The notes: generated by a model not told the origin, from the sequence alone. DNA of 64,000 nt from a candidate division LCP-89 bacterium (GCA_025774555.1 JALGVT010000005.1:382-64381), one strand, 5' to 3'; shown: positions 4,153-34,280, counted from the stretch's first letter. Numbers and translations are program-made.

Positions 4153-4156
4153 AATA

Positions 4157-5392: not shown

Positions 5393-5564
5393 TACACATT
5401 TAAATTATGACCGATATGGTGATTTGAATTTCTACTGACAGATCATGGTATTTTTTGTAATGTTTAGAAATTAAAATATTTATCTTGACTTTTCGGAATA
5501 ATTAGTTTAATTTAGTATAATGGATAGAAGTACTGATACAGTGATTTAATCGAGGCATCCATCG

Positions 5565-7709: not shown

Positions 7710-7802
7710 AGCCGAATACGGAATCAGAGTTAAAAGGGGACAGTGGAGAAGCCATTGCCTCCTTTTCTCTCCAAACACCAAAAAACAATAAAGAGGTCAA
7801 CC

Positions 7803-9833
7803 ATGAAATGCAGAACTCTAACAATTTTGTTGTTGCTGCTTCATATAACAGTAGCGTCTGCAATCGCTTACCAGCGCACGGTTCTGGTTGAAGATTTTAC
7901 CAACTGGGGTTGCGTTCCCTGTGCAATCCCGAACACTTATTTGCATAATGCCATTGAAAGTTTCACCTCGGACGAGGCGTTTGATATCGCCTATCATATG
8001 AGCTGGCCCAGCGGTAGTGATCCATTCTACCTTGCGAACCAGAGTGAAAATGACACCAGAAGGTACTATTACGGGGTCAATGCTGTCCCGCATATGCGTT
8101 GCAACGGAACGATCCAAATGAGTACCAGTTCACAGTCATCAATGATATCGGTCATCAATTCACAATTATCAATTCCTTCGGATATCTGGCTGGATCTTTC
8201 TGCTCAGGTTGTTGGCGATGAGATACACGTAACATGTACCGCGTATGCAGATGTGGCAATAACCGGTAATAAGGTGCTTCACATGCTCGTCCTCGACCGC
8301 TATACGTATCTCCCCGGGACTCCGAACGGCAATCCTAACCATTATCATGCCATGCTGGATATGGCGCCGACAGCATATGGACAGATGTTTAATGTGTCTG
8401 CTTTTGACTCGACATATTATATGGAAATATTTCCCTTAAATTCAAGCTGGCTGATTGAAAACCTGGACATTGCCTGTTTTGTGCAGGACAACGATACACA
8501 TTCTATCCTGCAAGCAAGAGTAGAGGAAATGCCGCTGGATTTTCCGAACATATTCATTGCAGAGTATGAAGTAACTGATCTAACGGGGAATAATGATGGC
8601 AGGGTCGATCCGGGTGAAACCGGTGAGATGATGGTCACACTGGAAAATATGGCGCCGTTCCACGATGCAACTGACGTTCAGGCAGAATTATCCACTGATG
8701 ATCCGTTAATCACGATTACTTCTAATACTGCTGCCTATCCAGATCTGATTTCAGGCGCATCAGCAGCTAACACTTCTAATCCATTCGTATTTGACGTCGA
8801 TCCAGCATTCGAAGCGCATGAAGTTACCTTTAATATCGCTGTTACGGCAGAGCCGGGAAGCTTCACATCAACGTATCAGATTACTTTCATGGTTGGTCGT
8901 CCTGACATTCTCTTACTGAACGATGATCTTCTCGGGTTCTATCAGGAATGGTATGAGGAGTCGCTTGATGAGGTGAACGAAGTCTATGATTCCTGGATTC
9001 AGCCGTTGCAGGGATTTCTGCCGCTGGATGAGATGAATCGGTATAATATCGTGATCTGGTACACAGGAGATGATAGTTATTCTCCATTGAGCGGAGATGA
9101 GCAGACCAAGATTGAGAACTTCCTGAACGAAGGCGGTCGCCTTCTGCTGTCAAGCCAATATGCAGGAGACGTTATCGGAGGTTCGACATTTCACGAAAAC
9201 GTTCTGCACTCCTGGCATCAAGTAAACTCAACAGGCGAACTGCTGTTATCGGGAGTTTCCGGCGATCCTGTTTCAGACAGCACGAGCATAACCTTCGCTG
9301 GTTCCGGCGGCGCTGGTAATAACAACTCTTGCTCGGGTATGGATCCGATTTCACCGGCAGTTGGAATTTATACCTACAACGTCTCGGGTCTGTTCGGTGC
9401 GCTGCGCTGCCAGACGGATGTAACGCGTTTTATATACTTCGGCTTTCCTCTTGAGGCTGCCACAGGCGCTGTGGGTACTACTCCGCGAGCAGAAATAATT
9501 GATAACTGCCTTAACTGGCTCAGAGGCGATGTCGCAGTTGAACCTGATGATCCTGCAACTTATCTACCAGAGCAGCTTGAATTAGACGGTGTTTATCCCA
9601 ATCCCTTCAATCCGTCTACCGAGATAAGGATAGCGCTTCCCACAAACCAACTCAGCAAATTACAGGTGTTTAATCTGCAAGGCAAGCTCGTTTCGGATCT
9701 TCTTAGCGGAGATTTGAACGCGGACAGATACAGTGTGCTATGGGATGCAAGTAACTTAGCATCTGGAGTCTATATAGTAACATTGAGTCATGGAACTGCA
9801 AGGCTTTCAACTAAAGCAATACTTATAAAATAA
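7803..9833 (+). CDS. Secreted T9SS cargo protein (CARDB-like and flavodoxin-like modules plus C-terminal sorting domain)
   Basis: Start moved to the ATG at 7803 (MKCRTLTILLLLLHITVASA signal peptide, AAAGAGG upstream). C-terminal T9SS CTD (..LDGVYPNPFNPSTEIRIALP..LQVFNLQGKLV..GVYIVTL..ILIK). Internal module shared with both S8 peptidases (RPDILLLNDD..VIWYTGDD..FLNEGGRLLL). Strong terminator immediately downstream. Confidence 0.7.
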   Translation: MKCRTLTILLLLLHITVASAIAYQRTVLVEDFTNWGCVPCAIPNTYLHNAIESFTSDEAFDIAYHMSWPSGSDPFYLANQSENDTRRYYYGVNAVPHMRCNGTIQMSTSSQSSMISVINSQLSIPSDIWLDLSAQVVGDEIHVTCTAYADVAITGNKVLHMLVLDRYTYLPGTPNGNPNHYHAMLDMAPTAYGQMFNVSAFDSTYYMEIFPLNSSWLIENLDIACFVQDNDTHSILQARVEEMPLDFPNIFIAEYEVTDLTGNNDGRVDPGETGEMMVTLENMAPFHDATDVQAELSTDDPLITITSNTAAYPDLISGASAANTSNPFVFDVDPAFEAHEVTFNIAVTAEPGSFTSTYQITFMVGRPDILLLNDDLLGFYQEWYEESLDEVNEVYDSWIQPLQGFLPLDEMNRYNIVIWYTGDDSYSPLSGDEQTKIENFLNEGGRLLLSSQYAGDVIGGSTFHENVLHSWHQVNSTGELLLSGVSGDPVSDSTSITFAGSGGAGNNNSCSGMDPISPAVGIYTYNVSGLFGALRCQTDVTRFIYFGFPLEAATGAVGTTPRAEIIDNCLNWLRGDVAVEPDDPATYLPEQLELDGVYPNPFNPSTEIRIALPTNQLSKLQVFNLQGKLVSDLLSGDLNADRYSVLWDASNLASGVYIVTLSHGTARLSTKAILIK

Positions 9834-9856
9834 CGCAGACTGATACTTTGAAGCAT

Positions 9857-9890
9857 GAGAGCCACGTTAAAGCGTGGCTCTCTTTTCTCT
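9857..9890 (+). terminator. Rho-independent terminator after the T9SS cargo gene
   Basis: Perfect 10-bp stem GAGAGCCACG / CGTGGCTCTC with loop TTAAAG, followed by TTTTCTCTT. Confidence 0.8.
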
Positions 9891-9952
9891 TGAAAACAAG
9901 ACTTTTAAAGATTAGATTATATAACCGAAATCATAACCGTCAAAATAACATT

Positions 9953-11953
9953 ATGAAGAAGAACATCCTGATTATCATTTTATTGGCGGGGGCGCTAGTC
10001 CGTATCTTCTATCTCGCCAGTATATGGAATACGCCTTTAGCAAACGTCCCCATTATCGACTCTGAATACTACCACACCTGGGCAGCCGCAATGGCGTCAG
10101 GAGTAAGTGGGGTTGAGGGTGTTTTCTTCATGAGTCCGCTCTATCCATATTTTCTCAGTTTGCTCTATAATCTATTCGGAGCAGTTCCGCATGTTGCGCT
10201 GATCTCGCATCTTATAATCGGTGTTCTACTTATCTTCCTCGTATATCTTCTCGGTAGAAGGATGTTTTCAGAGAATGCGGGTCTAATCAGCGCATTTCTC
10301 TGCGCTTTTTACATGCCGTTTATTTATTATGAAGGTATGATTTTAAGCGCCACACTTATTTTAGCCATCAATGCGTTAGTGCTCCTGCTCTTATTAAATC
10401 CAAATAAGGCAGTATGGCGGGAAATAGCCACCGGTTTTTTAATCGGTTTATCGGCTATGGCGAGACCGAATATACTGCTGTTTGCATTGCTGCTGATATT
10501 ATTTTATCTACTCTATCCTGCAAAGAGGGACTTACGGCGTGTGCTTCTTCTTTCAGTCGGTATAGCGATCATTCTAATCCCCATTGGGTATAGAAATCAC
10601 AGGATTGGCGGTGAGTGGATCTGGACTACGACGGGCGTTGGAATGAATTTTTACGCCGGTAATAATCCATCAGCCGAGGGAATATATTGGGAGGCGCCTT
10701 TTCTTCATTCAGCAGAGCCTCAATACGAGAATGAAGATTATCGAATGCAAGCCTCGCTGAATACAGGTCGTGAAATGACCGTTAATGAAGCATCTAAGTA
10801 TTGGCTCACGCGGGGAATTTCCTATATTTACAACCAGCCTGGCTCATATTTAAGGCTGTTATTAAAAAAATCCTTTCTCTTCTTTCATAATACGGAAATA
10901 CCTAATAATTTGAGCATCTACGCTGCTTTGGAGTTCAGTTCTGTCTTGCGACTGATTCCCTTCACTTTTGCGTTAATTGCTCCTATAGCTTTTGCAGGCT
11001 GGCTGTTTTTTAGAAGAAAATCGGGAATTGAAATAGTTCATCTCTATGGATTGAGTTATTTTACAGCGACTCTTTTCTTCTTTGCGGCATCGGAATATCG
11101 GTTGCCGATAGTTATCGTTCTGCTGCCTTTTGCTGGAAAGTTGCTGACCCAGTTAGTTAGTTACTTGAAGAATACAGAATGGGCTGCTATATTGAGGACT
11201 GTTTTATATGTGGTCGTTTTTGCTATCCCAATAAATATGCCCACCGGCTTCACGAAAAACCTTCAATCCAGCCGCATGGATTACTATAACCTTGGCAGCG
11301 TGCTGGAAAAACAGATGCGCTTTGAAGAGGCGTCTGAGATGCTGCAGCGTTCGCTCTTAATTGACCCGAGCTTTATTGAAGCGCATCGTGCTCTGGGGGA
11401 TTCCTATCATGCTTTAGGCATGCGCCAAGAAGCAGCCAGGGAATTTTCACTCGCAGGGGTGGATCCGAAACCGGAACTTTTGTTACTCGATGCCGAAGAG
11501 CAGATATTTGAAGCGCATTCTAAAGCAATGATGGGAGACTTAACGGGCGCGCTCAAAGCCTACGGGGAAGCAGTAGCAGCGCATCCTGATCCACCCGCAT
11601 ATGCATATTATAACATGGCTTATCTGGCGCTGCAATTGGGGGATACCCTCAGAGCAATGGATGAGATAAACATAGCCGCAGAAATTGAACCAGATGAACC
11701 GCAGATAGAATATCTAATCGGCTGGATTAACGAATGCAGGAATATGTGGAAGGAAGCGAACGATCATTATCTTTTCGCATTGCAGAAAAGACCGAACTTT
11801 CATAAGGCGCGCATTCAAAGCGCGAGGATGTACATTAGAATGGGAAATGCGGAGAAAGCTGCTGTAATGATAGAGCCTCTAATCGGAGTTCAACTTGATA
11901 ATGAGGAGATGTATAACGAAGTATTAGAAATTGCACGTGAGGTCGGGTACTAA
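9953..11953 (+). CDS. Glycosyltransferase family 39 (ArnT/PMT-like) membrane protein with C-terminal TPR repeats
   Basis: Start at the ATG at 9953 (MKKNILIIILLAGALV). The ORF-track start at 9848 overlaps the upstream terminator. More than ten hydrophobic helices typical of GT-C/GT39, then TPR repeats (..EASEMLQRSLLIDPSFIEAHRALGDSY..). Confidence 0.7.
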   Translation: MKKNILIIILLAGALVRIFYLASIWNTPLANVPIIDSEYYHTWAAAMASGVSGVEGVFFMSPLYPYFLSLLYNLFGAVPHVALISHLIIGVLLIFLVYLLGRRMFSENAGLISAFLCAFYMPFIYYEGMILSATLILAINALVLLLLLNPNKAVWREIATGFLIGLSAMARPNILLFALLLILFYLLYPAKRDLRRVLLLSVGIAIILIPIGYRNHRIGGEWIWTTTGVGMNFYAGNNPSAEGIYWEAPFLHSAEPQYENEDYRMQASLNTGREMTVNEASKYWLTRGISYIYNQPGSYLRLLLKKSFLFFHNTEIPNNLSIYAALEFSSVLRLIPFTFALIAPIAFAGWLFFRRKSGIEIVHLYGLSYFTATLFFFAASEYRLPIVIVLLPFAGKLLTQLVSYLKNTEWAAILRTVLYVVVFAIPINMPTGFTKNLQSSRMDYYNLGSVLEKQMRFEEASEMLQRSLLIDPSFIEAHRALGDSYHALGMRQEAAREFSLAGVDPKPELLLLDAEEQIFEAHSKAMMGDLTGALKAYGEAVAAHPDPPAYAYYNMAYLALQLGDTLRAMDEINIAAEIEPDEPQIEYLIGWINECRNMWKEANDHYLFALQKRPNFHKARIQSARMYIRMGNAEKAAVMIEPLIGVQLDNEEMYNEVLEIAREVGY

Positions 11954-12083: not shown

Positions 12084-13079
12084 ATGAAAATTCCCGATAC
12101 AGAGAGCGAAAATAAAAAGATGCAGGAACTCTATGAGCTAAGCGTCCAGCGGATAGCTCGATCTAGCACTACCGTCCTGATTAGCGGCGAAAGCGGCACG
12201 GGCAAGGAACGCATGGCTAATCTCCTGCAATATCACAGTCCAAGAAGTGACAAACCATATATAAAAGTCAATTGTGCCGCGCTGCCGGAAAGCGTATTAG
12301 AAAGTGAACTGTTCGGACATGAGAAGGGGGCGTTCACCGGCGCTGAAAGTCGTAGGATAGGCAGATTTGAGGCGGCGCACACGGGCACTATTTTCTTAGA
12401 TGAAATTGCCGATCTAACCCTCAATGTACAGTCGAAACTTCTTCGAGTTATTCAGGAAAGAGAGATTGAGCGTGTCGGCGGGACAAAAACGATAGGTATC
12501 GACGTCCGCATTATCGCCGCCACAAACAAAACGTTAAGTCAGGAAGTCAGTGAGGGACGGTTCCGCGAAGATCTTTATTACCGCTTGAATGTCATCGCGA
12601 TTGAAATCCCGGCGCTACGCGACCGCCCGGAAGATATCCTTCCTTTAACAGACAAATTTATCAATAAATTCTGCGAACAAAACCAGCGCGATCTAATCAG
12701 TCTCAGTACTGAGGCAGCCGAACTGTTTCAGAAGTATAAGTGGCTCGGCAATGTTCGAGAGCTGGAAAACATCATTGAAAGACTGACAGTTCTGCTCCCT
12801 AGGAATATAGTAACTCCGGACGTTCTTCCACCAGAATTAACCTCCGTCGGGAATTTGAATTCAGTCCATAGAGTGGAAATAGAAGGTAAAACTCTTCGCG
12901 AAGCGAAAGCCGATTTTGAAAAACAGGTAATCGAGGATACATTGGCAAAGTGCAAGGGGAACGTATCCGCTTCATCATCTATGCTGGGTATTGCCAGAAA
13001 AAACCTTCAGGGCAAAATAAAGAGTTATGGAATTGAGGTAGATCGATTCCGTGGTGGCAATACCGACACTGAAGCTTGA
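12084..13079 (+). CDS. Sigma-54-dependent transcriptional activator lacking an N-terminal regulatory domain (AAA+ core plus Fis-type HTH only)
   Basis: Walker A GESGTGKE, the sigma-54 contact motif GAFTGA (GHEKGAFTGA), Walker B IFLDEIADL, arginine-finger region, C-terminal HTH (..KGNVSASSSMLGIARKNLQGKI..). The AAA+ domain begins within about 35 residues of the first Met, so there is no receiver or GAF/PAS domain. Start chosen at the MKIPDTE Met; 12021 is also possible. Confidence 0.85.
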   Translation: MKIPDTESENKKMQELYELSVQRIARSSTTVLISGESGTGKERMANLLQYHSPRSDKPYIKVNCAALPESVLESELFGHEKGAFTGAESRRIGRFEAAHTGTIFLDEIADLTLNVQSKLLRVIQEREIERVGGTKTIGIDVRIIAATNKTLSQEVSEGRFREDLYYRLNVIAIEIPALRDRPEDILPLTDKFINKFCEQNQRDLISLSTEAAELFQKYKWLGNVRELENIIERLTVLLPRNIVTPDVLPPELTSVGNLNSVHRVEIEGKTLREAKADFEKQVIEDTLAKCKGNVSASSSMLGIARKNLQGKIKSYGIEVDRFRGGNTDTEA

Positions 13080-13142
13080 CCAACTCCTACCTTCTGATAA
13101 CTCCAAATAAACATATAATTACACCTAATCTATAATTTCGCT

Positions 13143-13156
13143 GGAACAAAGAATGC
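13143..13156 (+). promoter_or_regulatory. Candidate sigma-54 -24/-12 element (TGGAAC-N5-ATGCC)
   Basis: GG and GC separated by exactly 10 nt. About 190 bp upstream of the small ORF at 13347. A second overlapping candidate GG-N10-GC (AAGGGG..TTTGCC) lies at 13165-13178. Confidence 0.25.
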
Positions 13157-13346
13157 CACCTAAAGGGGACAACTTTGCCTTATATGTAACCTTTTCGTTA
13201 CACTTAACAGCGGGTATATTCGTGTATATAATCTATAAATATAGCTATATCTGTATAATATACAATATGATATGGAAGTAAAGTGATTTTTTAACAAGTT
13301 TGGCAAAGACTTTGCATTACTATCAGCAAAAGCGGAAAGTAAAATT

Positions 13347-13601
13347 ATGAACAAGATCAATCCATTACAGAAGATTGCCGGTTTACCTGAAGACAGGCAA
13401 AGCGATAAACCTAAAGATTCGAAGATAGATTCCAATAAGATATCAAGCGAATCTGTGCATGTGGAAATATCACCGAAAGCCCGGATGGTTCAACAAGCTG
13501 ATGCAGCCCAGAAAACAAATTCTGGGGTTTCCGCAGAGGATACATATCGCGTGGGTGACCAGTGGTATCTGAACGGATACCTTCTAAAAGAAGCGGATTG
13601 A
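13347..13601 (+). CDS. Hypothetical small protein (84 aa)
   Basis: Intact ORF in the operon-like cluster downstream of the sigma-54 activator. No recognisable domain. Confidence 0.4.
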   Translation: MNKINPLQKIAGLPEDRQSDKPKDSKIDSNKISSESVHVEISPKARMVQQADAAQKTNSGVSAEDTYRVGDQWYLNGYLLKEAD

Positions 13602-13617
13602 TAACAATAAGCAGTGG

Positions 13618-13656
13618 AGCCGGAGTGGCAACTCCGGCTTCACTATGTGCCTTTTT
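13618..13656 (+). terminator. Possible rho-independent terminator
   Basis: 9-bp stem AGCCGGAGT / ACTCCGGCT with loop GGCA. A T-run (CCTTTTT) follows, but 11 nt downstream. Confidence 0.4.
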
Positions 13657-13745
13657 GCTGTAAGGCTAATTTGTAAGCCAACACCTTCTTGATCCAAGTC
13701 ATGTTGGCGACATGACGTTCAGATTAACAGTGGTTGAATCGCATT

Positions 13746-13767
13746 TTGAATTCCCGAAAAGGGAATC
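13746..13767 (+). promoter_or_regulatory. Inverted repeat GAATTCCC-N5-GGGAATCC (candidate activator-binding site / UAS)
   Basis: 8-bp imperfect palindrome with a 5-nt spacer, about 20 bp upstream of a sigma-54-like -24/-12 element. Confidence 0.3.
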
Positions 13768-13784
13768 CTTGTGGTTGTCAGTGC

Positions 13785-13800
13785 TGGACCTTTGTTGGCT
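13785..13800 (+). promoter_or_regulatory. Candidate sigma-54 promoter (TGGACC-N5-TTGGCT)
   Basis: GG (13786-87) and GC (13798-99) separated by 10 nt. Lies 46 bp upstream of the ATG at 13846. Confidence 0.35.
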
Positions 13801-13845
13801 CTAACTTTATAATCGGCAGGATTCTTTAAAACTTTAGTTGTGAAC

Positions 13846-15111
13846 ATGAATATTTCCTGGCTAAATTCCAATCCTCACATCAGTTCGTTCTTGGACAGGC
13901 ATATTTCTTCTGCTCGTGTCCTCGGCGGTTCTGCTGAAAGCGAGGAGGAATTTAAGTCGAGCATTCGAGACAGCAGGAATGCAGGAACGTTTCGCGGCAT
14001 AAACAGTTTCTTTGCAAGCCCATTTGAAATTAGTAAATTAAACAATTTCAAGGGAATGAAGGAAAACGTTCATAACAAACAGTTAAAACCGCCGTTTGCG
14101 CCGCCTTCTGAAAAATTACTTCATGCCAGATCAGATAGTGTTGAGAAGAAACTCGAGGTCACAAGCCGGATCAGAGAGGAAGATCAGGTTCTTCTCACTA
14201 AAAACAAGTCGTTGGCGGAATTAATAAGTAATGATACTGAACTGCGGGATGCATTCATCAATGGTGACTATGCAGACGTTAAGGAGAAGTTGTCCTTAGC
14301 TGCAAAGGAGAAACTTGGCTGGAATCCGAACATCACACAGAAATTCCTTGAAGAGCACCCTGATGAAGCAGCCATAATCACAGCAGATTTGGGCAATGTG
14401 TCGAACTTGTTGTCTGAAAAGGATTTGGCAGATGCGCTGACAAGCGATGTTCTTGACAGGTTGGAGAACGAGGTATTTGGGCGGCTTTCTGAAAAAGCTG
14501 CTAATCTTTTTTCCGATGCTCCGAAATTGAATGAAGAATTCTTCAATGAAAATCCCAAAGCTGCTTTATATCTGTTGAAACATCCTGAAGAGATAAATCG
14601 ATTAGACTCAAATCGAATTGCTCAGGACGAATTTCACGATCACGTCGCGCTATATGAAAATCTGGTAGATCCGGTGGCTGAAGCAAAGAAATTGGCGGAC
14701 GGAAACGTTGCATTGGGTAATGATTTCTGGGATGGTAATCCCGAGCTATCGCTGATAATGATGGCTGAAAGGGCAGTTGATTTAAGTAGCGAAATGCAGA
14801 AGAGCGCACTCGATTTTCCGAAGGAGAATTACGAAAAGAGCACACTGTATGAACTTCTTTCTCACGATCAAGCAAAAAGAGCCAAAAAGCTGCTGGGTGA
14901 TAATTCAACGCTCAGCTTAAGTTTTCTTGAAGAGCATAGCGGTTTTTCACGTTTGCTAAATGAAGATCCCGATTTTGCTGAGACATTAAATGAGGATTCA
15001 GGTGTTTCTGAACTATTTCAAGACAATGACAGCAAGACAGCTCGCATATTACGATCGTATGTTTCTGGACTACCAGGCAGAGATCGTTCTTCCTGGCACT
15101 GGTGGGCTTGA
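13846..15111 (+). CDS. Hypothetical acidic protein with internal F-x-E-E-H-P / F-x-N-E-N-P repeats
   Basis: Long ORF. The ORF-track start at 13840 is a GTG; the ATG at 13846 is preferred. Asp/Glu-rich. Repeated motifs FLEEHPDEAA, FFNENPKAALYLLKHPEE, FWDGNPELSL, FLEEHSGF. No match to a family I recognise. Confidence 0.5.
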   Translation: MNISWLNSNPHISSFLDRHISSARVLGGSAESEEEFKSSIRDSRNAGTFRGINSFFASPFEISKLNNFKGMKENVHNKQLKPPFAPPSEKLLHARSDSVEKKLEVTSRIREEDQVLLTKNKSLAELISNDTELRDAFINGDYADVKEKLSLAAKEKLGWNPNITQKFLEEHPDEAAIITADLGNVSNLLSEKDLADALTSDVLDRLENEVFGRLSEKAANLFSDAPKLNEEFFNENPKAALYLLKHPEEINRLDSNRIAQDEFHDHVALYENLVDPVAEAKKLADGNVALGNDFWDGNPELSLIMMAERAVDLSSEMQKSALDFPKENYEKSTLYELLSHDQAKRAKKLLGDNSTLSLSFLEEHSGFSRLLNEDPDFAETLNEDSGVSELFQDNDSKTARILRSYVSGLPGRDRSSWHWWA

Positions 15112-15113
15112 TA

Positions 15114-15530
15114 ATGAAGAATGAATTGATAAAACTCACAGCAGATAAAGTGACGATTTCTGAGCAGGGCAGAGCGGCTGCTCACAAATGGAAACCCGGC
15201 GATAAGCCGTTTGTGCAGTTTATAGCTGAGAGCGAAGAGCAGTTTGACAAAACTGAGCGAGTTAAAGACGATCAGGCTTGGTGGAGTGTTGATCCCGTTA
15301 AAGGAATTGATGAAAATGATCGTGATGCCAATCTCCCTGCTGATAAAAGAAAAGCAGGAATAGTTACTGCCGACAAGAAATTGACGTTGGATATTGGCAG
15401 CCGTCTGGAAATAGAGAACCTTCAAAACTTACGCGGACTAATTATCAGGAGCACTACGAAAGTTAATATGAGTAATGGAGACCCCACCTGTGAAACGAAC
15501 TGGGAGGTATTCCCAGAAGATTTGAAATAG
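15114..15530 (+). CDS. Hypothetical protein (about 138 aa)
   Basis: ATG 3 nt after the upstream stop, which suggests translational coupling. No recognisable domain. Confidence 0.45.
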   Translation: MKNELIKLTADKVTISEQGRAAAHKWKPGDKPFVQFIAESEEQFDKTERVKDDQAWWSVDPVKGIDENDRDANLPADKRKAGIVTADKKLTLDIGSRLEIENLQNLRGLIIRSTTKVNMSNGDPTCETNWEVFPEDLK

Positions 15531-15555
15531 ATTTGTTGATGAGAAGGGCTAAGAT

Positions 15556-15750
15556 ATGAGTATAAGCATAAAAAATCCTATTCAGGTGCAGGACCAGTTC
15601 CGACCTACAGGATCAAAGATGAAGTTAGATGAGTTTTTCAACCCGCTAAGCGAATCTTTGCAACGGATAGGAGAGATACGCGAAGAGAGAAGGGGCGAAA
15701 ACTTATCGATGCCTGATGAACAATATAAGCGAATAGATATTAAAGTGTAA
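15556..15750 (+). CDS. Hypothetical small protein (64 aa)
   Basis: AAGGG ribosome-binding site upstream (aagggctaagatATG). Part of the same-strand cluster. Confidence 0.35.
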   Translation: MSISIKNPIQVQDQFRPTGSKMKLDEFFNPLSESLQRIGEIREERRGENLSMPDEQYKRIDIKV

Positions 15751-15770
15751 GGAGGATATTATGGCTGATG

Positions 15771-15920
15771 GTATTGAAAAAATAGGGAACAATCATCCAC
15801 CACCGGAAGCAAGACGCTCCAACGTGGAAGATAAGTACAGAGAATTAGAAGAACTTGACAGACGTCGAGAAACGCTAGCCGAAGAGGGTAAAGGCGAGAC
15901 TATCGACGTGTACGCATAAA
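15771..15920 (+). CDS. Hypothetical small protein (49 aa), absent from the ORF track
   Basis: Perfect Shine-Dalgarno AAGGAGG 7 nt upstream of the ATG (aaggaggatattATGgctgat). Product MADGIEKIGNNHPPPEARR..TIDVYA. Confidence 0.3.
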
Positions 15921-15956
15921 ACAATGTAATACCAATAAAAAAAGCAGGGGGTTATT

Positions 15957-16298
15957 ATGGTAGATCAGACAAGGTTGCCAGGGTATATCGCTGGTAAATT
16001 GACAAACCAGCTGCAGAATGCTCAGAACGCTGCACAGCGCGAAAAATTGATGGATGAAATCGCCAATTCACAGCAGGTGGAGCATCTGAAGGAGGTCGTA
16101 AATCCTGACAGACTCAGTGAGAAAATGCAGAGTGTTACAAAGAATGAGAGAATCCAGGATTTCGTGCATATCTCACCCGAAGGCAGGGAAAAGCAGCAAG
16201 CTCAGGAAACTACCCAGACCAATCCGCAAGGACCGGGGAGCGAATCAAATCCGCATCCCGAACTGGGCGCTCTCGGCAATCTAAATCCGGAGGCATAA
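15957..16298 (+). CDS. Hypothetical protein (113 aa), Gln-rich
   Basis: GGGGG ribosome-binding site upstream. Ends 6 bp before hemW. Confidence 0.45.
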   Translation: MVDQTRLPGYIAGKLTNQLQNAQNAAQREKLMDEIANSQQVEHLKEVVNPDRLSEKMQSVTKNERIQDFVHISPEGREKQQAQETTQTNPQGPGSESNPHPELGALGNLNPEA

Positions 16299-16304
16299 TA
16301 TAAT

Positions 16305-17444
16305 TTGTTAGACCCGATAAGCCTCTACGTTCACGTTCCGTTCTGTCAACGGCGCTGTCCTTACTGTGCTTTCTATTCAGTTGAAAGCGCCCGCGAAGAG
16401 GAAATCACAAGCTACCCGCGTCTACTCCTTAAAGAATTGCAATTGATAAAGGAGTCCTGGCGCGGGTCTTCAATTGGGACTATATACTTCGGTGGCGGAA
16501 CGCCCTCAATTCTGCCGCCCAGCCTGGTAGAGAGTGTAATTAGCGCAGCTAAAGAAGCATTTCAGTTTGAAGATGATATAGAAGTGACTCTGGAATGCAA
16601 TCCGGGCACAGTCGATGCTGGCAAGATTGAAGCCTTCATATCTGCGGGAATCAATCGTCTGAGTATCGGCATTCAAGCGCTCAATGATGATAGACTTGGA
16701 TTTCTGGGACGGATTCATGATATGAATCAAGCAGTGGAGACGTTGAAAATAGCGACTGAAGCAGCTGGAGTCGATGTTTCAGCAGATCTCATGGCAGGTA
16801 CGCCTCTGGATACCAGAGAGAGCTGGTATAGAGAACTAGAAAAGCTCTTACCGTTTCGTCCCGATTCATTGTCCTTTTACAGTTTAACCGTCGAAGAAGG
16901 CACAGATCTGGCGTTACGATTAGAAAAAAACGAGAAAATATGCCTTGGATCAGACGAAGTAGTTGATCTGATGATGTATATCGGAGATCGATTGGCAGAC
17001 GCAGGATACCGTCACTACGAAGTGTCAAACTGGGCTTTGCCCGGACATGAATGCCGCCATAATTTGCATTATTGGCGGCGCGGAAGATATATCGGTTTAG
17101 GTCCATCGGCACACTCATTCGATGGAAAACGGCGCAGTTGGAATAAGCCGGATGTTACAAGCTATAGAGAAGCGCTGAATAATGGGAATCTCCCGCCGTC
17201 TGAATATGAAGTCTTGAGTGATGCAGAGGTGATGTCCGAGTGGGTTTATTTAGCGCTGCGAGTCGCTGATGGGCTTGATTTTGGAGAGTATCAGGAAATG
17301 TTCGGAGAAGTACCCTCGAGTTGGAAATCGTTACTTGAGAAAACTGCTGCATCAGGATACGGCGATTTCGATGGAGTGAGATTTAAACCAAACGACAGGG
17401 GTTTGCTGTTAGCGGATGAAATATCGGCGAGGATACTTGGATAG
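16305..17444 (+). CDS. hemW: Radical SAM heme chaperone HemW (HemN-like, oxygen-independent coproporphyrinogen III oxidase family)
   Basis: N-terminal radical SAM motif HVPFCQRRCPYCAFY (CxxxCxxC), GGGTPS motif, HemN C-terminal domain. Confidence 0.85.
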   Translation: MLDPISLYVHVPFCQRRCPYCAFYSVESAREEEITSYPRLLLKELQLIKESWRGSSIGTIYFGGGTPSILPPSLVESVISAAKEAFQFEDDIEVTLECNPGTVDAGKIEAFISAGINRLSIGIQALNDDRLGFLGRIHDMNQAVETLKIATEAAGVDVSADLMAGTPLDTRESWYRELEKLLPFRPDSLSFYSLTVEEGTDLALRLEKNEKICLGSDEVVDLMMYIGDRLADAGYRHYEVSNWALPGHECRHNLHYWRRGRYIGLGPSAHSFDGKRRSWNKPDVTSYREALNNGNLPPSEYEVLSDAEVMSEWVYLALRVADGLDFGEYQEMFGEVPSSWKSLLEKTAASGYGDFDGVRFKPNDRGLLLADEISARILG

Positions 17445-17493: not shown

Positions 17494-18693
17494 TTACCAT
17501 TTCAGGGCGTTCATGATATCACGAACAAACAGCAGAGCATCCGGACCTGAGACATTTTCAGATGGTCGAAAATATCCCGTCATTTTATCCAGATCCATGA
17601 TATTGCGCTCGACAGCGAGCATGGCAGCGCCATAGAACGGATGATCGGTTCGCATGTCGCGAATATGCGACTCTTTTTCGCCTATATATTTTGAGAAGAT
17701 ACTTTCGTCGCGCGTTACCATGTAGATAAGTCGCTGCACCGCGCCGGCGAATTCGATTCTGGTTACAGGGTCATCCGGATAGTATTTATGATCCTGAGCT
17801 ATTTCGAAAATACCGGTGGCTACGAAATCACGTATCATTGATTCCGCCCAGTGACCGTCTATATCGAGAATTTCATTTCGATCTGGACCAGTTGCAGACG
17901 TCTGGAATTCAAGAGGATCCTCAGCCTTGAATGACAGGTCAGGAGCAGTGCTCCCGGCTTCGCGCCTCTCAATTCTTTCCACGACGTTCAATTCTTCAAT
18001 GAACAGGACAGCCATGTCTGCGCGGTTGATTTCATCGACGAGAGCAATTTTCTTACCCCACTTCGTGCCAGGTTGAGCCCGCACGATCTTGTGGACGCTC
18101 TCCATGGCTTCACCAGCTTTTTCAGACCATAAGCCGTTGATGTCGATGGCATTTCTAAGCATATCCTCTGAGCTTCTGAAACTGAAAGCCTGTTTGTATG
18201 CCAGACCCATGTAGTAATATGCTTCATCGCTGCGCGGATCGATCTTCAATGCTTTGCTCAAGCCTTTTTCACAATCCTTGATCCAGTTATCATCTTTCTG
18301 CATAATCGCATAGCAACGGATGTATGCAATCCAGACGCGGATATCTGAATCATCCAATCCCTTGGCATCGCCCAGGTGATCTTCAGCGCTTTTAAAATAT
18401 TCTTTCCGTATCTTGGATTTCGGATCTTTTATCTCTGATCCCAGTGCCGCATAGACCATACTCAAACCCGCATGAGCTGGAGCGAAATCCTTGTCGAGCA
18501 GCAGGGCATCTTTAAAGCGTGCTTCAGCCGCATCTAGATCGCCCGCATCGAACTTGCGAATACCCTGGTTGTAATGCGATTCGGGTGTATCCAGCAGCCC
18601 TTCTGCGGCACGTTGTTTAGGTCCGCAGCCGTTTATACAGAAAACTGCCGCGATAAAGGTTATCGTTAAAATAACGGGAATTATTCTTTTCAT
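17494..18693 (-). CDS. Lipoprotein with N-terminal TPR repeats and C-terminal SLH-like (S-layer homology) domains
   Basis: Start at the Met with GGAGGA upstream (MKRIIPVILTITFIAAVFCINGCGPKQ: lipobox with Cys). TPR region. The C-terminus matches the SLH pattern (..ILDIDGHWAESMIRDFVATGIFE..DPVTRIEFAGAVQRLI..). Confidence 0.6.
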   Translation of the reverse strand: MKRIIPVILTITFIAAVFCINGCGPKQRAAEGLLDTPESHYNQGIRKFDAGDLDAAEARFKDALLLDKDFAPAHAGLSMVYAALGSEIKDPKSKIRKEYFKSAEDHLGDAKGLDDSDIRVWIAYIRCYAIMQKDDNWIKDCEKGLSKALKIDPRSDEAYYYMGLAYKQAFSFRSSEDMLRNAIDINGLWSEKAGEAMESVHKIVRAQPGTKWGKKIALVDEINRADMAVLFIEELNVVERIERREAGSTAPDLSFKAEDPLEFQTSATGPDRNEILDIDGHWAESMIRDFVATGIFEIAQDHKYYPDDPVTRIEFAGAVQRLIYMVTRDESIFSKYIGEKESHIRDMRTDHPFYGAAMLAVERNIMDLDKMTGYFRPSENVSGPDALLFVRDIMNALKW

Positions 18694-18740
18694 ATACTCC
18701 TCCAATTGCAAATAAGCAATTAATTAAGCAGAATTACGGT

Positions 18741-19547
18741 TTAGTCGAGGATGACGATGACGCGGCATTTCTGCAGGAAGTTCAGGTTCTCCTTCATGCT
18801 GTGCAGAAGTTCAGCATCCTGATTGGAAATGACGACGTCGGCGCGATTCGGTCCTTCTGACTTTAATCCTTTCACAACCAGAGGTTTATCGGTGACTCTG
18901 TCATTCTTTGCCGCGGCTTCCATATCCTTTTCATAGCCGATCATACCGTATTGAATAGCCCACTCTTTGCTGACATAACTTGAACCGTACACTTCTTGAC
19001 CATCTTCATTCAGAACTCGTGGCGAAAGCGCAGGTCGGGCTCCCAAACCGGTTGCATCTATGATAAGACCGGTATAGACAACTCCTGATATAGCCGAAGA
19101 GAGTGGCTGTGCTCCCCCCATTTTCGCAGGCAAAACAGCTTCAAGGAAAGGACCATCAAGACTCATCTCAATGGTTACTTCGATTGAACCGTCATCGTAA
19201 TATCTTGGATCACCCACCTGCCGGAAATTCTGAGCAATCCCTTCAACTCTGGTCCGCACTACGTCACTTGACAACATTGAGTTTTTGACAGTGGTTTCAG
19301 ACGACATGGCGATACCTTGGATGACCTCAAGCATGTTTCGTAATGCGTCCATTTTAGCCGCACGAATAATGCCGGCTCTACCTCCAGGTCCGCCCGGCGC
19401 ACCGATTCCAGTGGCAGAGATCGTACGCTGAGTAAAATCTACAGATCCATTCATACCAATCTGTTGAACTACACCTTGTGCCAATCCGATCGTTGTCCAG
19501 AGCAGTAGTAATAAACAAACAGATGCTGCAACGGTGGATATGCGCAT
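18741..19547 (-). CDS. Periplasmic LPP20/FlgP-like family protein
   Basis: Start at MRISTVAASVCLLLLLW (AAGGAGG upstream). Motif ..ISATGIGAPGGPGGRAGIIRAAKMDALRNMLEVIQGI.. resembles the LPP20 lipoprotein family. Confidence 0.45.
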   Translation of the reverse strand: MRISTVAASVCLLLLLWTTIGLAQGVVQQIGMNGSVDFTQRTISATGIGAPGGPGGRAGIIRAAKMDALRNMLEVIQGIAMSSETTVKNSMLSSDVVRTRVEGIAQNFRQVGDPRYYDDGSIEVTIEMSLDGPFLEAVLPAKMGGAQPLSSAISGVVYTGLIIDATGLGARPALSPRVLNEDGQEVYGSSYVSKEWAIQYGMIGYEKDMEAAAKNDRVTDKPLVVKGLKSEGPNRADVVISNQDAELLHSMKENLNFLQKCRVIVILD

Positions 19548-19701
19548 AAGTACCTCCTTATGCATTTTATTTTTATTTTAGTATCAAACTCTAAACGGCG
19601 AAATGAGCTAAGATTAACCCATTTCGAAGTACTCTAAGAAATTTAATCCGTACTGCTGATTAATTCAAGTGAAAAGAGCGCTATTTTCAGCGATGTGTCT
19701 G

Positions 19702-20562
19702 CTATTTCTGATCGACCGCCTTGTCCTTTTCCAAGTTCCAGCGAACCCATTCAGTCTGTTCATCGGGATCTTCAGCTGAGAAGTCACCTGATGACAGCAG
19801 TTGACCTTTGCTGTCTATCCTGATCTCCTGCATGTTCTTTATAATATAGTACCACACCTCGAAGGTAACCCGCCGTGGTCCCTGGATCTGCTGGGGACCC
19901 TGAATCTGCTTAATATGAGGCAGTTCCTGAGGAACAAGCTCCTTTATATCGGCAGTATTTGTGATTTTTACCTCACCTTTATAGACCTTGAGAACAGTGG
20001 AGGAATCATCACCTACACTGATACGAAAACGCGTCCCGGTGATGGCTGCGCCAGCGACTGGTGTATTAACGTCAAAAGAGACCTCCTCTTTTTCTTCAGA
20101 CACCATTGCCCAGATATCACCCTTTACTACGTCTATTTGAGTTTCATCGAGTCCCTCTTTGGTCTCTTCATATAATTTGACTATGTCGATGGTCGTTAAT
20201 GGCGCCATGCGGATAATGTTTAGTTCTTTCAGGGTGAGTTCCGCACGTGATTCTCGAAGGGTGCGCACTTTGTCACCGCTGATAATTTCAGAACCTAAAA
20301 CTGCGCTCATCCAATTATCAGATGTCACCGGTAGTTTTCTGGCTCGCCCGTCCAGTTCCGTAACCTTTCCACGGTGATGAATATCCTCATCCTGAACGTC
20401 TGCGAAAAGCTCCTCGTCCGCCTTTACTCCAACATGCAGAAAAACTACAAGATTGCACAGAAATAGAAAAGCTATTACACGGTTGCGTCTCAGTAATCCG
20501 CTTCTTTTTACAGGCATCGCTTGTGCCTCCCGAATTATAGGTTCTATTTTCTTAAACCACAA
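19702..20562 (-). CDS. Membrane-anchored FecR-domain protein
   Basis: One N-terminal TM helix (VIAFLFLCNLVVFLHV). Periplasmic region with FecR-like pattern (..VKGDIWAMV..FDVNTPVAGAAITGTRFRISVGDDSSTVLKVYKGEVKI..). Confidence 0.5.
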   Translation of the reverse strand: MWFKKIEPIIREAQAMPVKRSGLLRRNRVIAFLFLCNLVVFLHVGVKADEELFADVQDEDIHHRGKVTELDGRARKLPVTSDNWMSAVLGSEIISGDKVRTLRESRAELTLKELNIIRMAPLTTIDIVKLYEETKEGLDETQIDVVKGDIWAMVSEEKEEVSFDVNTPVAGAAITGTRFRISVGDDSSTVLKVYKGEVKITNTADIKELVPQELPHIKQIQGPQQIQGPRRVTFEVWYYIIKNMQEIRIDSKGQLLSSGDFSAEDPDEQTEWVRWNLEKDKAVDQK

Positions 20563-20607
20563 TATTTAAATATTTCTCCCCAAAAGCAAGAAATATGTAG
20601 CTTAATT

Positions 20608-23600
20608 TCAATTAATATGAGATGCACCGGTTAGATTTCCCGTCGGTTCACCTGTCAGGATAAATGCAGCCCAATAAGAGGGATGCGCGTTAATGCGGTC
20701 ACGTATATGCCGTTGTGCACTCTGCATGGATTCTGCAGGAGAAAGCCCAGCCCTCAAGTTTCGATAGAACCGCTTGACGAGCACAGCCGTGGCGAGATCG
20801 TCAACTTTCCAGAGAGAGGAAAAGACGCGCGGAGCTCCCGCATAAATAAACGCCCGGTTAAATCCTATAATCTCTTCGCCGCCCGATATCCCTCCTAATC
20901 CGCTTTCACAAGCAGAAAGAAGAACTAAAGAGCAGTGATCGAGGTGAAGATCGAAAATTTCAAACATCTCAAGCCGCCCGTCCTGTTCATCATCCGGCGC
21001 TAAGAAAAGACTTGAAAATGTTGGATTCTTTGAATTGAACTCACCGTGACAGGCTAAATGAACCACGCTTGCGCTGTCGCTGAAATTCACAAGTTTGGAT
21101 TCCTTTGCCTGTTCACCAAGATAGATATTCACATCTTTATAGACATATTTGATTGCGCTAACTTCTTTTTCACCGAAAAACAGACTCTCCAGCGGCAGAC
21201 CTGTGTCAGGATTACCAAGCGCTAGAATTTTACCAATTTCATTATGAGATCTTTCTTCAACTCTGTTTCTACAGAATGAAAATATATTTGCTGAAGGCAC
21301 ATAATTGAGAGTGAAGTGGTCTATTATATAGCTGCCATCCGGTTCAATCAACAAGGCAAAAGGAAGATAGAAGAGAGAACTTGTCGGCGCTATGATCAGG
21401 TGACTTTTATCATTCAGACGTTTCACAATAGGCGCTATCAATATTCTATATAGTCTTATACATTCTTCTTGAACAGAGAGTTTCTTCTTCAATCTCATAC
21501 GCAGATTTTCAACCATAGTCTTCAGAGAATCACCTTTAATAGCAACTTTTGCAGCTTTTATCCCTTCACGATCCAGCGTGAATATCACTAATGCCTCATC
21601 TAACAGGTAGTACTCAAGCAGTATTTCCTCGTTTTTCAACATCGTTTGGATCTGCGTCGAAGGCGCTGGAGTAACAGAGGTAATGTCTCTGTAACCGGGA
21701 TGACTGTTCTCTATCCGTTCGAGCAGGTAGCGGTAATCATTCTCTAATGAATCGATTATTGTAGTATAGTTGGCAAAAAGCGCGTCCTCTTCCGGTGTTC
21801 TGACGGCGCCTTTCGTTTTGAGATATTCTACTTCTTTGCGAATTCCTGCCAATTTCGTGGATATAGCATTTACTTTATCCTGCATTTCGACTGAAAGCCC
21901 GGCGCTGTGGTCGATGCTGCGATTCTGAATCATATCTAAAAAGGTTCGAGAGCGCGATCTTTCCACAACATCGAGAGCGCCAAATGTATTATCCTCATTT
22001 AAAAGAATGCTGACAGCCAGCCTGTACACCTGACCTTTATTCTCCATGAAGCCGGTCTGCAAACCCTCTACGGCGATAGAAGCACGCGTTTTCTCAATCT
22101 GCTCCATGGCGCTGTAAAGAGATACCAATGCTTCTTCGTTTTTTCTATTTTTTATGAATGCTTCAGCACGTGCCAGCTCAATGCGCCATAAGAGGTCTTC
22201 TATGTTATTGTCTTCTGCTATTCTTCTAGCGAGATATAAATTGGAAATCGCCTCTTTAATAGCGCCATTAGCTATTTCAATAAGCCCCATTCCGAGAAAA
22301 GTTCTCGCGTGTATTCTTTGATCGGTAACCTGCGGAAGGATGTTTTTAACAGTTTTAAGCGCTTTCCTGGCTGAGTCTGCCTGATCTGTTTGAATATACG
22401 CATTGCCGAGATTAAGCAGTGAATACGCCATGCCGCGTATTGAATTAAGCTCTTTATCGATTTTATATGTCCGCCTGAAACGGATAATTGCCTTATCAAC
22501 CTCGCCGGATGAGAGTTCTATAAGACCTATGTTCTTTTCAATCTGCGATCTGCTCCTGTAATCACCTGTGGTGATAGCTCCTTCTAATGCGTGCTTGGCT
22601 TTTTTCAATGCCCTCTCGGCGTCTCCTAAGCTCAGATAAATAAGAGCTTCCGTATTTTCCGCAAGATAGACGTATTGATTTAATCCGAGTTCTGAGAATT
22701 GCTCACTCGCGATACGTATTCTGTCAAGTCCTTCCTGAAATCTTCCCTGTTTCCAGTAAAGTCCAGCGATATACTGATGCGACAGAGCAGTCGTCAAAGA
22801 ATTCTCCTGACCTTCAAGTTCAATCGCCTTACTCTGCATTCTTAGTGAGTTTTCATAGTCTGTCATGCCTTCGTAAGCTAAACCAAGGTGCTGATACAAT
22901 TCTGGCGGTATTGCTAGAGCATGTCCTGACGCTTCTTCCAGATTAGGAATATTATCAAGAATATCCTCGAGGAAACGGGAAGCCTTATAATAATCCTCCC
23001 TTATCAGCATCAGACGACAAAGATAGACACTGCTTATAATATAGGGTTCATATTCACCCCAGTCATAATATAGGTCCCGCGCTCTGGATATAGCAGTTTC
23101 AGCAGCATTATAATCTTTAAGTTTCTCATGGTATGTCGCAGTTATCTGGTCGTCAGAAGCCGCCCGCAATTCGTCTCCACGAACAATTGCCATACTGCGA
23201 GCCTTTGCACGCGCACCAATTGCGTTTGCAGTGCTGTCTAGGTTGTAGTAATATACCGAAAGGTTGCGGTATCCAGTCTCGACCAATTTCAGGTCTCTTT
23301 CTGCCCCGGCAATATCTATCAATATAGTCTGTGATTCGATAGCTTTTCCCCAAAAAGAAGCGCCGCGTGCCGCCTTGATTCGGAGCAGATGCAGTTTTTT
23401 GATGGAAGCCGCATCTTCTGTCTCTTCAGCCATGGCAAGCGCTGAATTATAGTACCGCAAAGCCCACTCGGCATCACCTTTCTGTAAATTATAGTTGCCC
23501 TTGAGAACGGTTGATGTGAAGTTCTGTTCTACGAATTCCTGTCGCTGAAAATGATCTAATCCACCGCTCCCATAATATTTAAAGCCAGAGAGTGCTTCAT

Positions 23601-33985: not shown

Positions 33986-34280
33986 CTCCTATCTTTTATG
34001 TTTTATTGCTATTTAATTCTACAATATGACACACAGAATGGACATTATCAAGAAATATATGAATTGAATGCTATCGCAAAATGAACCCGCCATGATAGAA
34101 ATACTACAGGAGGATATGTACTGAAATGATACATTGTTAGATGTATCCTCACAGTTTAAGACATATAACTGCGTATATGTTGAAGCGAATCCGCTTACGA
34201 GCTGATGGTATAAATATTGCTTTAATAAATCTGATAAATTCGTTATAATAAACGTGTCAATGAAATATCAGGGCGAGATT

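Follow-up and report, generated by a model that had tools for sequence, protein, structure and literature searches.

In a 64,000-nt stretch of the genome of a candidate division LCP-89 bacterium (GCA_025774555.1, JALGVT010000005.1:382-64381; hereafter, the window), a gene encoding a sigma-54 activator devoid of a sensor domain is followed on the same strand by six genes, designated g1 to g6, and by hemW, which encodes a radical S-adenosylmethionine (SAM) haem chaperone. The reading favored here, which we hold to be fairly probable, is that of a self-contained sigma-54 module, in which the sensor-less activator would act at two conserved boxes (A and B) to fire the transcription of g1 to g6 and, probably, of hemW. 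The regulatory architecture of this locus is ordinary and well supported, and its cargo proteins, the repeat family to which g2 belongs and the leader RNA are undescribed.

The sensor-less activator and the conserved cluster

The layout put forward in a preliminary description of this DNA, that is, an activator gene followed by six open reading frames (ORFs) on the same strand, was confirmed by the ORF listing and by the raw sequence (Table 1). The lengths given for five of these ORFs (84, 421, 138, 64 and 113 aa) were also confirmed; the fifth ORF, described as 49 aa long, really has 52 aa, and its orthologues have 53-55 aa. Additionally, the Shine-Dalgarno sequences or translational coupling that had been noted for five of the six genes are visible in the sequence, g2 being the sole cluster gene without a Shine-Dalgarno sequence and the gap between g2 and g3 being of 2 nt in the window.

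Table 1. Coordinates of the activator locus, counted from the first nucleotide of the window
Feature	Position	Strand	Description
Activator gene	12084..13079	+	331 aa from the ATG at 12084
Box A	13154..13179	+	TGNCACC-N5-GGGNNCANCTTTNCC; candidate enhancer (upstream activating sequence, UAS); kept in 9/9 aligned sequences (8 lineages)
Box B	13185..13202	+	TGWWAC-CTTTTC-GTNNCA; candidate enhancer; kept in 9 sequences, 8 lineages
A/T-rich block	13254..13273	+	TAATATACAATATGATA; conserved in the alignment, between boxes and promoter
Sigma-54 promoter	13301..13316	+	TGGCAAAGACTTTGCA; TGGCA-N6-TTTGCA; -24 GG, -12 GC
g1	13347..13601	+	84 aa, hydrophilic
Stem-loop	13614..13643	+	12 bp, directly after the g1 stop; 8/12 pairs change on both sides
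RNA core	13676..13800	+	Closing stem AGCCAAC/GTTGGCT, hairpin P2 (GTCATG...CATGAC), conserved GGTTGAATCGC, variable hairpin P3
g2	13846..15111	+	421 aa, acidic, all-alpha
g3	15114..15530	+	138 aa
g4	15556..15750	+	64 aa
g5	15761..15919	+	52 aa, acidic
g6	15957..16298	+	113 aa
hemW	16305..17444	+	Radical SAM haem chaperone (TIGR00539)

The absence of a sensor domain from the activator, as claimed in that description, was borne out by its domain composition and by its orthologues. The protein is a complete sigma-54 enhancer-binding protein (bEBP) of 331 aa; its AAA+ domain begins at about residue 10, and it consists of Sigma54_activat (PF00158, E = 9.2e-70), AAA_lid_14 (PF25601) and HTH_8 (PF02954, E = 5e-9). 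Its Walker A (GESGTGKE) and Walker B (IFLDE) motifs do not vary among the orthologues, and the GAFTGA loop is intact in the window activator (HEKGAFTGA), being kept in four of five orthologues and replaced by GSFTGA in one. The helix-turn-helix (HTH) region, of the Fis type, is largely invariant, and its LGIARKNLQxKI motif is identical in all five orthologues. The contigs bearing related loci are denoted here by L numbers, and the activator orthologues found in four other lineages (L004, L005, L006 and L009) are 63-68% identical to that of the window, are equally short (330-339 aa) and share the same short N-terminus despite having different genes upstream. The equal lengths and N-termini next to differing upstream genes make it implausible that a sensor exon was missed or that a frameshift hides an upstream domain, and they also indicate that the sensor was lost in an ancestor of the group rather than through an assembly artefact. 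Judging from these sequences, the sensor-less state is thus ancestral in this group of orthologues. In the window, the preceding gene, which encodes a PMT_2/TPR protein, ends at 11953, so that the 130 nt in between leave no space for a sensor domain.

Among solved structures, the closest relative of the AAA+ and HTH parts is ZraR (1ojl, E = 5e-84), whereas the receiver domain of ZraR/NtrC is entirely absent from the window activator and from all of its orthologues. The activator is also not an orthologue of PspF, since it scores below the cut-offs of both PspF models (281 bits against 443.55 for TIGR02974, and 242.5 against 529 for NF008622). Another difference from ZraR/NtrC is a conserved C-terminal tail located after the HTH, RFRGxxTDTEA (13032-13076), which is invariant in all of the activator orthologues. 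To our knowledge, such a tail after the HTH is unusual for this class of proteins, and it could represent a docking site for a partner.

The cluster downstream of the activator is conserved as a unit. The same seven genes are found in the same order and with near-identical spacing on contigs L001-L011 and L015-L017, gene order and spacing being kept in about eight other lineages. Across these loci, g1 and g2 are separated by 214-244 nt, g2 and g3 by approximately 2 nt, and g4 and g5 by 9-12 nt, while the gap between g6 and hemW is of 6-7 nt in the six loci measured, so that the transcription unit probably ends with hemW. In the comparison of L001 with L003, the ratio of non-synonymous to synonymous substitution rates (dN/dS) was 0.13 for g1, 0.07 for g2, 0.12 for g3, 0.29 for g4, 0.08 for g5 and 0.04 for g6, against 0.10 for hemW, which was taken as the comparison value. 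Furthermore, conserved motifs are present in every one of the six proteins. Therefore, g1 to g6 are real genes under purifying selection, contrary to the missing conservation or coding signal that the preliminary description had named as grounds for rejection. It could be argued that the small ORFs arose by chance or reflect faulty annotation and that only the activator and hemW are real, considering that they match no database family and encode short, hydrophilic proteins, a type often over-called; such a reading is, however, hardly credible in view of the conservation of the six ORFs in order, length and spacing, of their motifs and of their low dN/dS values.

The distribution of the cluster is narrow, which limits its significance. 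A scan for a single g3 peptide pattern detected it in 2 of approximately 185,000 GTDB species representatives, and genome and metagenome scans with a g3 alignment returned two genomes and one contig; it is also present on a handful of metagenome contigs. The samples that contain it include SRR15988951-3, ERR14790950, SRR14699975 and JGI 3300041077. The g1 orthologues come from nine loci, a profile search with g3 yielded 19 relatives, and the g2 search yielded three relatives with about 46% identity. No loci were found in the genome and metagenome scans made with a four-sequence g2 alignment, and an exact look-up of the g2 of the window gave no entry; in the word-indexed search with the 61-sequence alignment of the g2 family, the figure was at least four proteins.

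The promoter region and the g1-g2 spacer

It had also been proposed that sigma-54 elements lie between the activator and the cluster. One such element was indeed located there, at a position other than those named. The TGGCA-N6-TTTGCA sequence recurs unchanged in each of the nine loci searched, L011 among them, as well as in L017. Its TGG is placed 44-46 nt before the g1 start codon, and both the 6-nt spacer and the flanking sequence differ between loci. A lone match to the sigma-54 pattern would not be significant, since six were found in the 64-kb window against seven expected; however, the conservation of this one is significant, because it is invariant and at a fixed position in lineages whose proteins are approximately 40% identical. 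The transcription start of g1 is predicted from this element to lie near 13327.

On the other hand, neither of the sites originally named could be retained as a sigma-54 promoter. The first one, at 13168-13190, overlaps box A, and most loci do not keep its -12-like GC, which indicates that box A is not a sigma-54 promoter. The second one, at 13785-13811, lies inside the RNA element described below, and its GG-to-GC spacing varies from 9 to 11 nt among the loci. Elsewhere in the window, a perfect sigma-54 match (TGGTATAAATATTGCT, 34206-34221) is found 33 nt before a gene encoding a 527-aa TPR protein (34254-35837), and a match with one mismatch occurs at 34793-34808.

Boxes A and B lie directly 3' of the activator gene, roughly 100-150 bp upstream of the promoter, and are about 31 bp apart, which corresponds to roughly three helical turns. 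Box A resembles an NtrC-type dyad, whose consensus we take to be TGCACC-N5-GGTGCA. In the window, box B reads as a perfect palindrome, TGTAAC-N6-GTTACA, and is the only intergenic match to its pattern; its arms covary, as GTAAC/GTTAC in the window is replaced by GATAC/GTATC in L005. Both boxes are retained in L001 although the activator gene is not next to the cluster there, and their conservation fits the largely invariant HTH region of the activator. The A/T-rich block found between the boxes and the promoter may be a DNA-bending or IHF-type site. The succession of enhancer, bend and -24/-12 element is the standard sigma-54 layout (PMC7057263).

The spacer between g1 and g2 (13602-13845; 214-244 nt over the loci) is as conserved as the coding regions and contains a conserved structured RNA of roughly 230 nt with covariation. 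The main features returned by RNAalifold were the stem-loop following g1, a long-range closing stem (AGGCCAAC/GUUGGCCU) and the internal hairpin P2, and folds of single sequences gave the same closing stem and P2. Changes on both sides of a pair, in at least one sequence, were observed in 15 of the 38 predicted pairs. In a nine-sequence alignment, 94.6% of the cells were paired, and 15 pairs with two-sided changes stood against 6.2 ± 1.7 in shuffled alignments (none of 500 reached 15) and against two to five in slid controls, where partners were shifted by one to three columns. Hairpin P3, which varies in sequence and length, is found at an equivalent place in all but one of the nine distinct sequences that were folded, L006 being the exception. 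Two further conserved sequences, ATCGGCAG and AACTTTAG, precede g2. No Rfam family reached its gathering score in the whole window, and in a scan of 12900-14100 at E <= 10 none came near it (best E = 1.9). The spacer is read as a cis-acting RNA that would set the expression of g2 to g6 relative to that of g1, and the stem-loop following g1 is a candidate partial terminator or 3' stabiliser.

The same spacer could be understood differently, with g2 to g6, and hemW with them, forming a separate unit transcribed from a sigma-70-type promoter in the spacer, the stem-loop acting as a full terminator and the conservation of the spacer reflecting regulation at the DNA level. A TGGACC-N17-TATAAT match at 13785-13813 would agree with such an arrangement, as would the strong 12-bp hairpin after g1; in the other loci, an A/T-rich hexamer resembling a -10 element lies 16-18 nt downstream of a TGGACC-like hexamer that was recognisable by eye in seven of nine. 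However, P2, P3 and the stem following g1 maintain their pairing through two-sided and length changes, as expected of RNA and not of protein-binding DNA, and RNA pairing accounts for the invariant pair AGGCCAAC...GTTGGCCT, whose members are separated by about 125 nt. In addition, the hairpin after g1 has no U tract in most loci. A separate unit is therefore regarded as unlikely, although the sigma-70 promoter and the RNA element are not mutually exclusive.

The cluster products

As had been stated in the preliminary description, the six proteins carry no recognisable domain: no match of g1 to g6 reached threshold in Pfam, NCBIfam, PADLOC or PHROGs, and sequence-profile searches of the PDB with g1, g2, g3 and g6 gave only chance-level matches. 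All six are hydrophilic and acidic to near-neutral, with isoelectric points of 4.8-6.2 and grand averages of hydropathy of -0.6 to -1.35. Neither a signal peptide nor a type IX sorting domain was detected in g1 to g6, which ruled out the possibility that they are secreted type IX cargo.

The largest product, g2, belongs to a family for which an exhaustive profile search gave 83 representative clusters at E <= 1e-3, or 39 when the limit was set at E <= 1e-10, and whose members have mostly 380-450 aa; when ten members were examined for Pfam domains, none scored above the curated cut-off. The AlphaFold2 model of g2, built from the 61-sequence alignment, is confident and all-alpha (pLDDT 83.4, pTM 0.76). 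In this model, residues ~45-98 are disordered. Residues ~100-412 form five tandem helical repeats of about 64 aa each, and the comparison of the repeats with one another by hhalign gave pairwise probabilities of 55-97%, with E values down to 6e-11. A Foldseek search with the model found no fold match in PDB or BFVD, the best E values being 0.6 and 0.15 with TM-scores of about 0.1. As a five-repeat helical protein, g2 may be a scaffold. A distant relative in Candidatus Aureabacteria is encoded by a solo gene beside pilus genes, with neither an activator nor small-protein partners, which indicates that the g2 family is not tied to this operon; the surroundings of this solo gene offered no hint of a function. 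This family is widespread and has a confident predicted fold and no solved relative. The number of repeats in g2 equals that of the co-inherited small proteins, which may be a coincidence.

Each small protein has its own conserved segments. In g1, these are the N-terminus M-x-K-I-N-P-L, the motif (D)xVEIS-xx-AR-xVQ and a C-terminal QWYxxGY. In g3, the N-terminus MKxxLIxLxxDKVTISEQGxAAxxKWxxGDKPF is followed by an acidic linker and by a conserved, beta-rich C-terminus (LDIGSRLE...IRSTTRVN...CETxWEV); its AlphaFold2 model was poor (pLDDT 57) and unfit for a structure search. An FNPL motif and a C-terminal I-D-(L/I)-x-(I/A/V) are conserved in g4, the C-terminus EEGKGxx(V/I)DxY(A/V) in g5, and an invariant D-x-VHIS followed by AQxLYRA, together with a C-terminal LGxxDPE, in g6. 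A motif, D-x-V-x-I-S-x-x-A, is common to g1, g3 and g6. Additionally, g4, g5 and most of the wider g2-family members end in a short hydrophobic-Asp/Ser-hydrophobic C-terminus (IDIKV, IDVYA, VDIIV, IDIFA, VSIVV), which resembles the internal RVEIS, KVTIS and FVHIS of g1, g3 and g6. The C-terminal and internal motifs may be one shared linear motif of the beta-strand type.

The only recurrent Pfam match of the small proteins was FlgM (PF04316), seen below threshold in three of nine g6 orthologues and in two of nine g1 orthologues, the g6 match having E = 0.007. Like FlgM, the proteins g1, g3 and g6 are short, disordered and acidic, and the D-x-V-x-(I/L)-S-x-x-A motif matches the start of the FlgM model. 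These recurrent matches in g6 and g1, and the fact that sigma-54 controls flagellar genes in several phyla, raise the question of whether the cluster is a motility regulon whose small proteins act as anti-sigma-28 factors of the FlgM type or are otherwise exported by the flagellar apparatus. Such a role is, however, very improbable: the score of 16.9 bits is below the 25-bit cut-off, the match is limited to model positions 1-23 of 55, the latter half of the domain is lacking, and FlgM was not retrieved by the PDB profile searches. Besides, the flagellar context is lacking, since no flagellar domain was found among the scanned ORFs of at least 150 aa in the 64-kb window, nor in the conserved neighbourhood of the related loci.

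The proposed module, its relatives and its genomic setting

In the proposed mechanism, an oligomer of the activator would bind the two dyad-like boxes (13154-13202), upstream of the -24/-12 element, and its ATP hydrolysis would, via the GAFTGA loop, open the promoter. Transcription would then proceed through g1, the stem-loop and the structured leader RNA into g2 to g6 and, probably, hemW. The stem-loop and leader would most likely fix the ratio of g1 to g2-g6, whether by partial termination, by processing or by control of translation at the start of g2, where no Shine-Dalgarno sequence is present. The products would be cytoplasmic, acidic and largely helical-repeat or disordered proteins, with g2 as a possible scaffold and with the five small proteins bearing short linear motifs, namely D-x-V-x-I-S in g1, g3 and g6 and the C-terminal hydrophobic-Asp-hydrophobic motif in g4 and g5.

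For want of a sensor, the activator must be controlled in trans (PMC7057263), and the most economical model would be negative feedback by one of the operon products, as with PspA on PspF and HrpV on HrpS. By analogy with these systems, an operon product may serve as the anti-activator, and g1 would be the leading candidate because it heads the cluster, has the stem-loop between itself and the other genes and bears the FlgM-like motif. What we infer is which activator acts at the g1 promoter, that the genes are transcribed together, what part the RNA plays, the presence of an anti-activator and the physiological role. A further suggestion, speculative and rather unlikely as a whole, is that the products build an undescribed cytoplasmic assembly, in which g2 would be the scaffold of five disordered partners attached via short linear motifs, one of them, most likely g1, would double as a new kind of anti-activator acting in trans, and a new cis-acting RNA would tune the proportion of g1 to the other products.

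The link between the activator and the cluster was assessed by comparing the related loci, a check to which the preliminary description had pointed. The activator gene stands directly before g1 in six lineages (the window, L002, L004/L015, L005, L006 and L009/L016/L017), with only a C-terminal fragment of the activator, ending in ...TDTEA, present on the L002 contig. The association is not universal, and several observations weigh against a self-contained module. In L001, a citrate-synthase-like gene occupies the place of the activator, which is absent from the 7.5 kb upstream; L003 aligns with L001 in the region upstream of the cluster, so that the activator gene is probably non-adjacent there too. 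The two genes can thus occur apart. Exopolysaccharide-type genes precede the activator on the same strand in the window, L004 and L005, so that it could act on different targets or on more than the cluster. A sigma-70-like promoter (TGGACC-N16-18-TAtAAT) can also be read in the 3' part of the spacer between g1 and g2, so that g2 to g6 could have a promoter of their own. Lastly, profile-profile support for the FlgM-like motif is modest (E = 1.3e-4 for g1 versus g6, with weaker values for the comparisons with g3), and the motif is below the Pfam threshold in every case. As a separate observation, the citrate-synthase-like gene of L001 (6324-7229) looks truncated, with 301 aa, and the boxes and the sigma-54 promoter are kept there.

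These observations also bear on the idea that activator and cluster are neighbours and not partners, the activator serving other promoters, for example among the exopolysaccharide genes upstream, and another activator, encoded elsewhere, firing the g1 promoter. It would be favored by the Wzz/BY-kinase, Omp28/type IX secretion and PMT_2/TPR genes that immediately precede the activator, in the same orientation, in the window, L004 and L005, and by the retention in L001 of promoter and boxes without an adjacent activator. However, the adjacency of the activator to g1 is maintained in six lineages, at 63-68% activator identity, while the genes upstream change, and the ORFs upstream of the activator in L006 and L009 are on the minus strand. 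Moreover, the window has no second copy of TGGCA-N6-TTGCA or of box B near the activator, and both boxes are directly downstream of the activator gene. Mere neighbourhood is accordingly judged improbable, and a dedicated activator-operon module remains the preferred reading.

Sensor-less sigma-54 activators are few, and each of the studied cases, Psp and Hrp, has given a distinct trans-acting control protein. The resemblance to these systems that had been claimed for the layout, with novel components, holds for the combination of a sensor-less activator with a neighbouring sigma-54 operon and a presumed control in trans, and does not extend to orthology with PspF or to the presence of PspA. 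As in the psp system of E. coli, the window activator consists of AAA+ and HTH parts only, with no cis-regulatory domain, and its gene adjoins a sigma-54 promoter that is preceded by an upstream activating sequence. The activator of the Psp system is inhibited in trans by PspA, which the first gene of the operon encodes (PMC7057263). The pspF gene is divergent from its target operon, whereas the window activator is co-directional with the cluster; the products of the latter are unrelated to Psp, with no homologue of PspA/IM30, PspB or PspC at threshold in Pfam or NCBIfam. HrpR and HrpS are likewise sensor-less activators, checked by the small HrpV encoded in their own regulon (PMC7057263). They form a co-dependent pair, in contrast to the single activator gene of the window. 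In addition, the Hrp system of Pseudomonas syringae belongs to a type III secretion context, whereas no type III secretion or hrp genes were found in the window, whose host is uncultured and carries genes for type IX secretion. No similarity of g1 to g6 to HrpV or HrpG was seen in any library, HrpV not having been searched by name. A Psp/Hrp-like regulatory logic is plausible.

If so, the module would be a clean, compact and conserved third example beside Psp and Hrp, from an uncultured lineage, and, since all of its parts are contained within ~5 kb, it could be rebuilt in E. coli. It also holds three unannotated objects, namely a five-repeat helical family, five co-inherited micro-proteins and a covarying leader RNA without an Rfam family.

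The gene that closes the putative unit was assigned to hemW by TIGR00539 (234.7 bits against a cut-off of 205.4). The maturation of a ribosomally synthesized peptide or of other peptides by this downstream radical SAM gene was considered and rejected, since it scores as the HemW equivalog. Past hemW, the minus strand (17494-29043) encodes a TPR/SLH protein (405 aa), an LPP20-like lipoprotein (274 aa), a FecR-domain protein (286 aa) and a 2811-aa CHAT-TPR-PD40 giant. All of these but the giant recur in most related loci, and the CHAT giant is present where contigs reach far enough (L002, L008 and the ERR13166145 contig), other genes being found instead in L001 and L003. The link to hemW and these downstream genes give no clear functional direction.

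Upstream, at 569-11953, the strand of the activator encodes sulfatase and phosphodiesterase, a GT4 glycosyltransferase, a Wzz/BY-kinase-like ATPase, a type IX-sorted Omp28-like protein and the PMT_2/TPR protein, an exopolysaccharide-type arrangement that is partly conserved in L004 and L005. The region 36943-61525 encodes a PorV-like protein, a 1377-aa C25 gingipain-like peptidase and two S8 subtilases with Por_Secre_tail. These hallmarks of type IX secretion point to an uncultured organism of the Fibrobacteres-Chlorobi-Bacteroidetes (FCB) group, to which, judging from the gene content, the host probably belongs. The same region also encodes CdaA (c-di-AMP synthase), TsaB/TsaE and a PglZ-domain response regulator.

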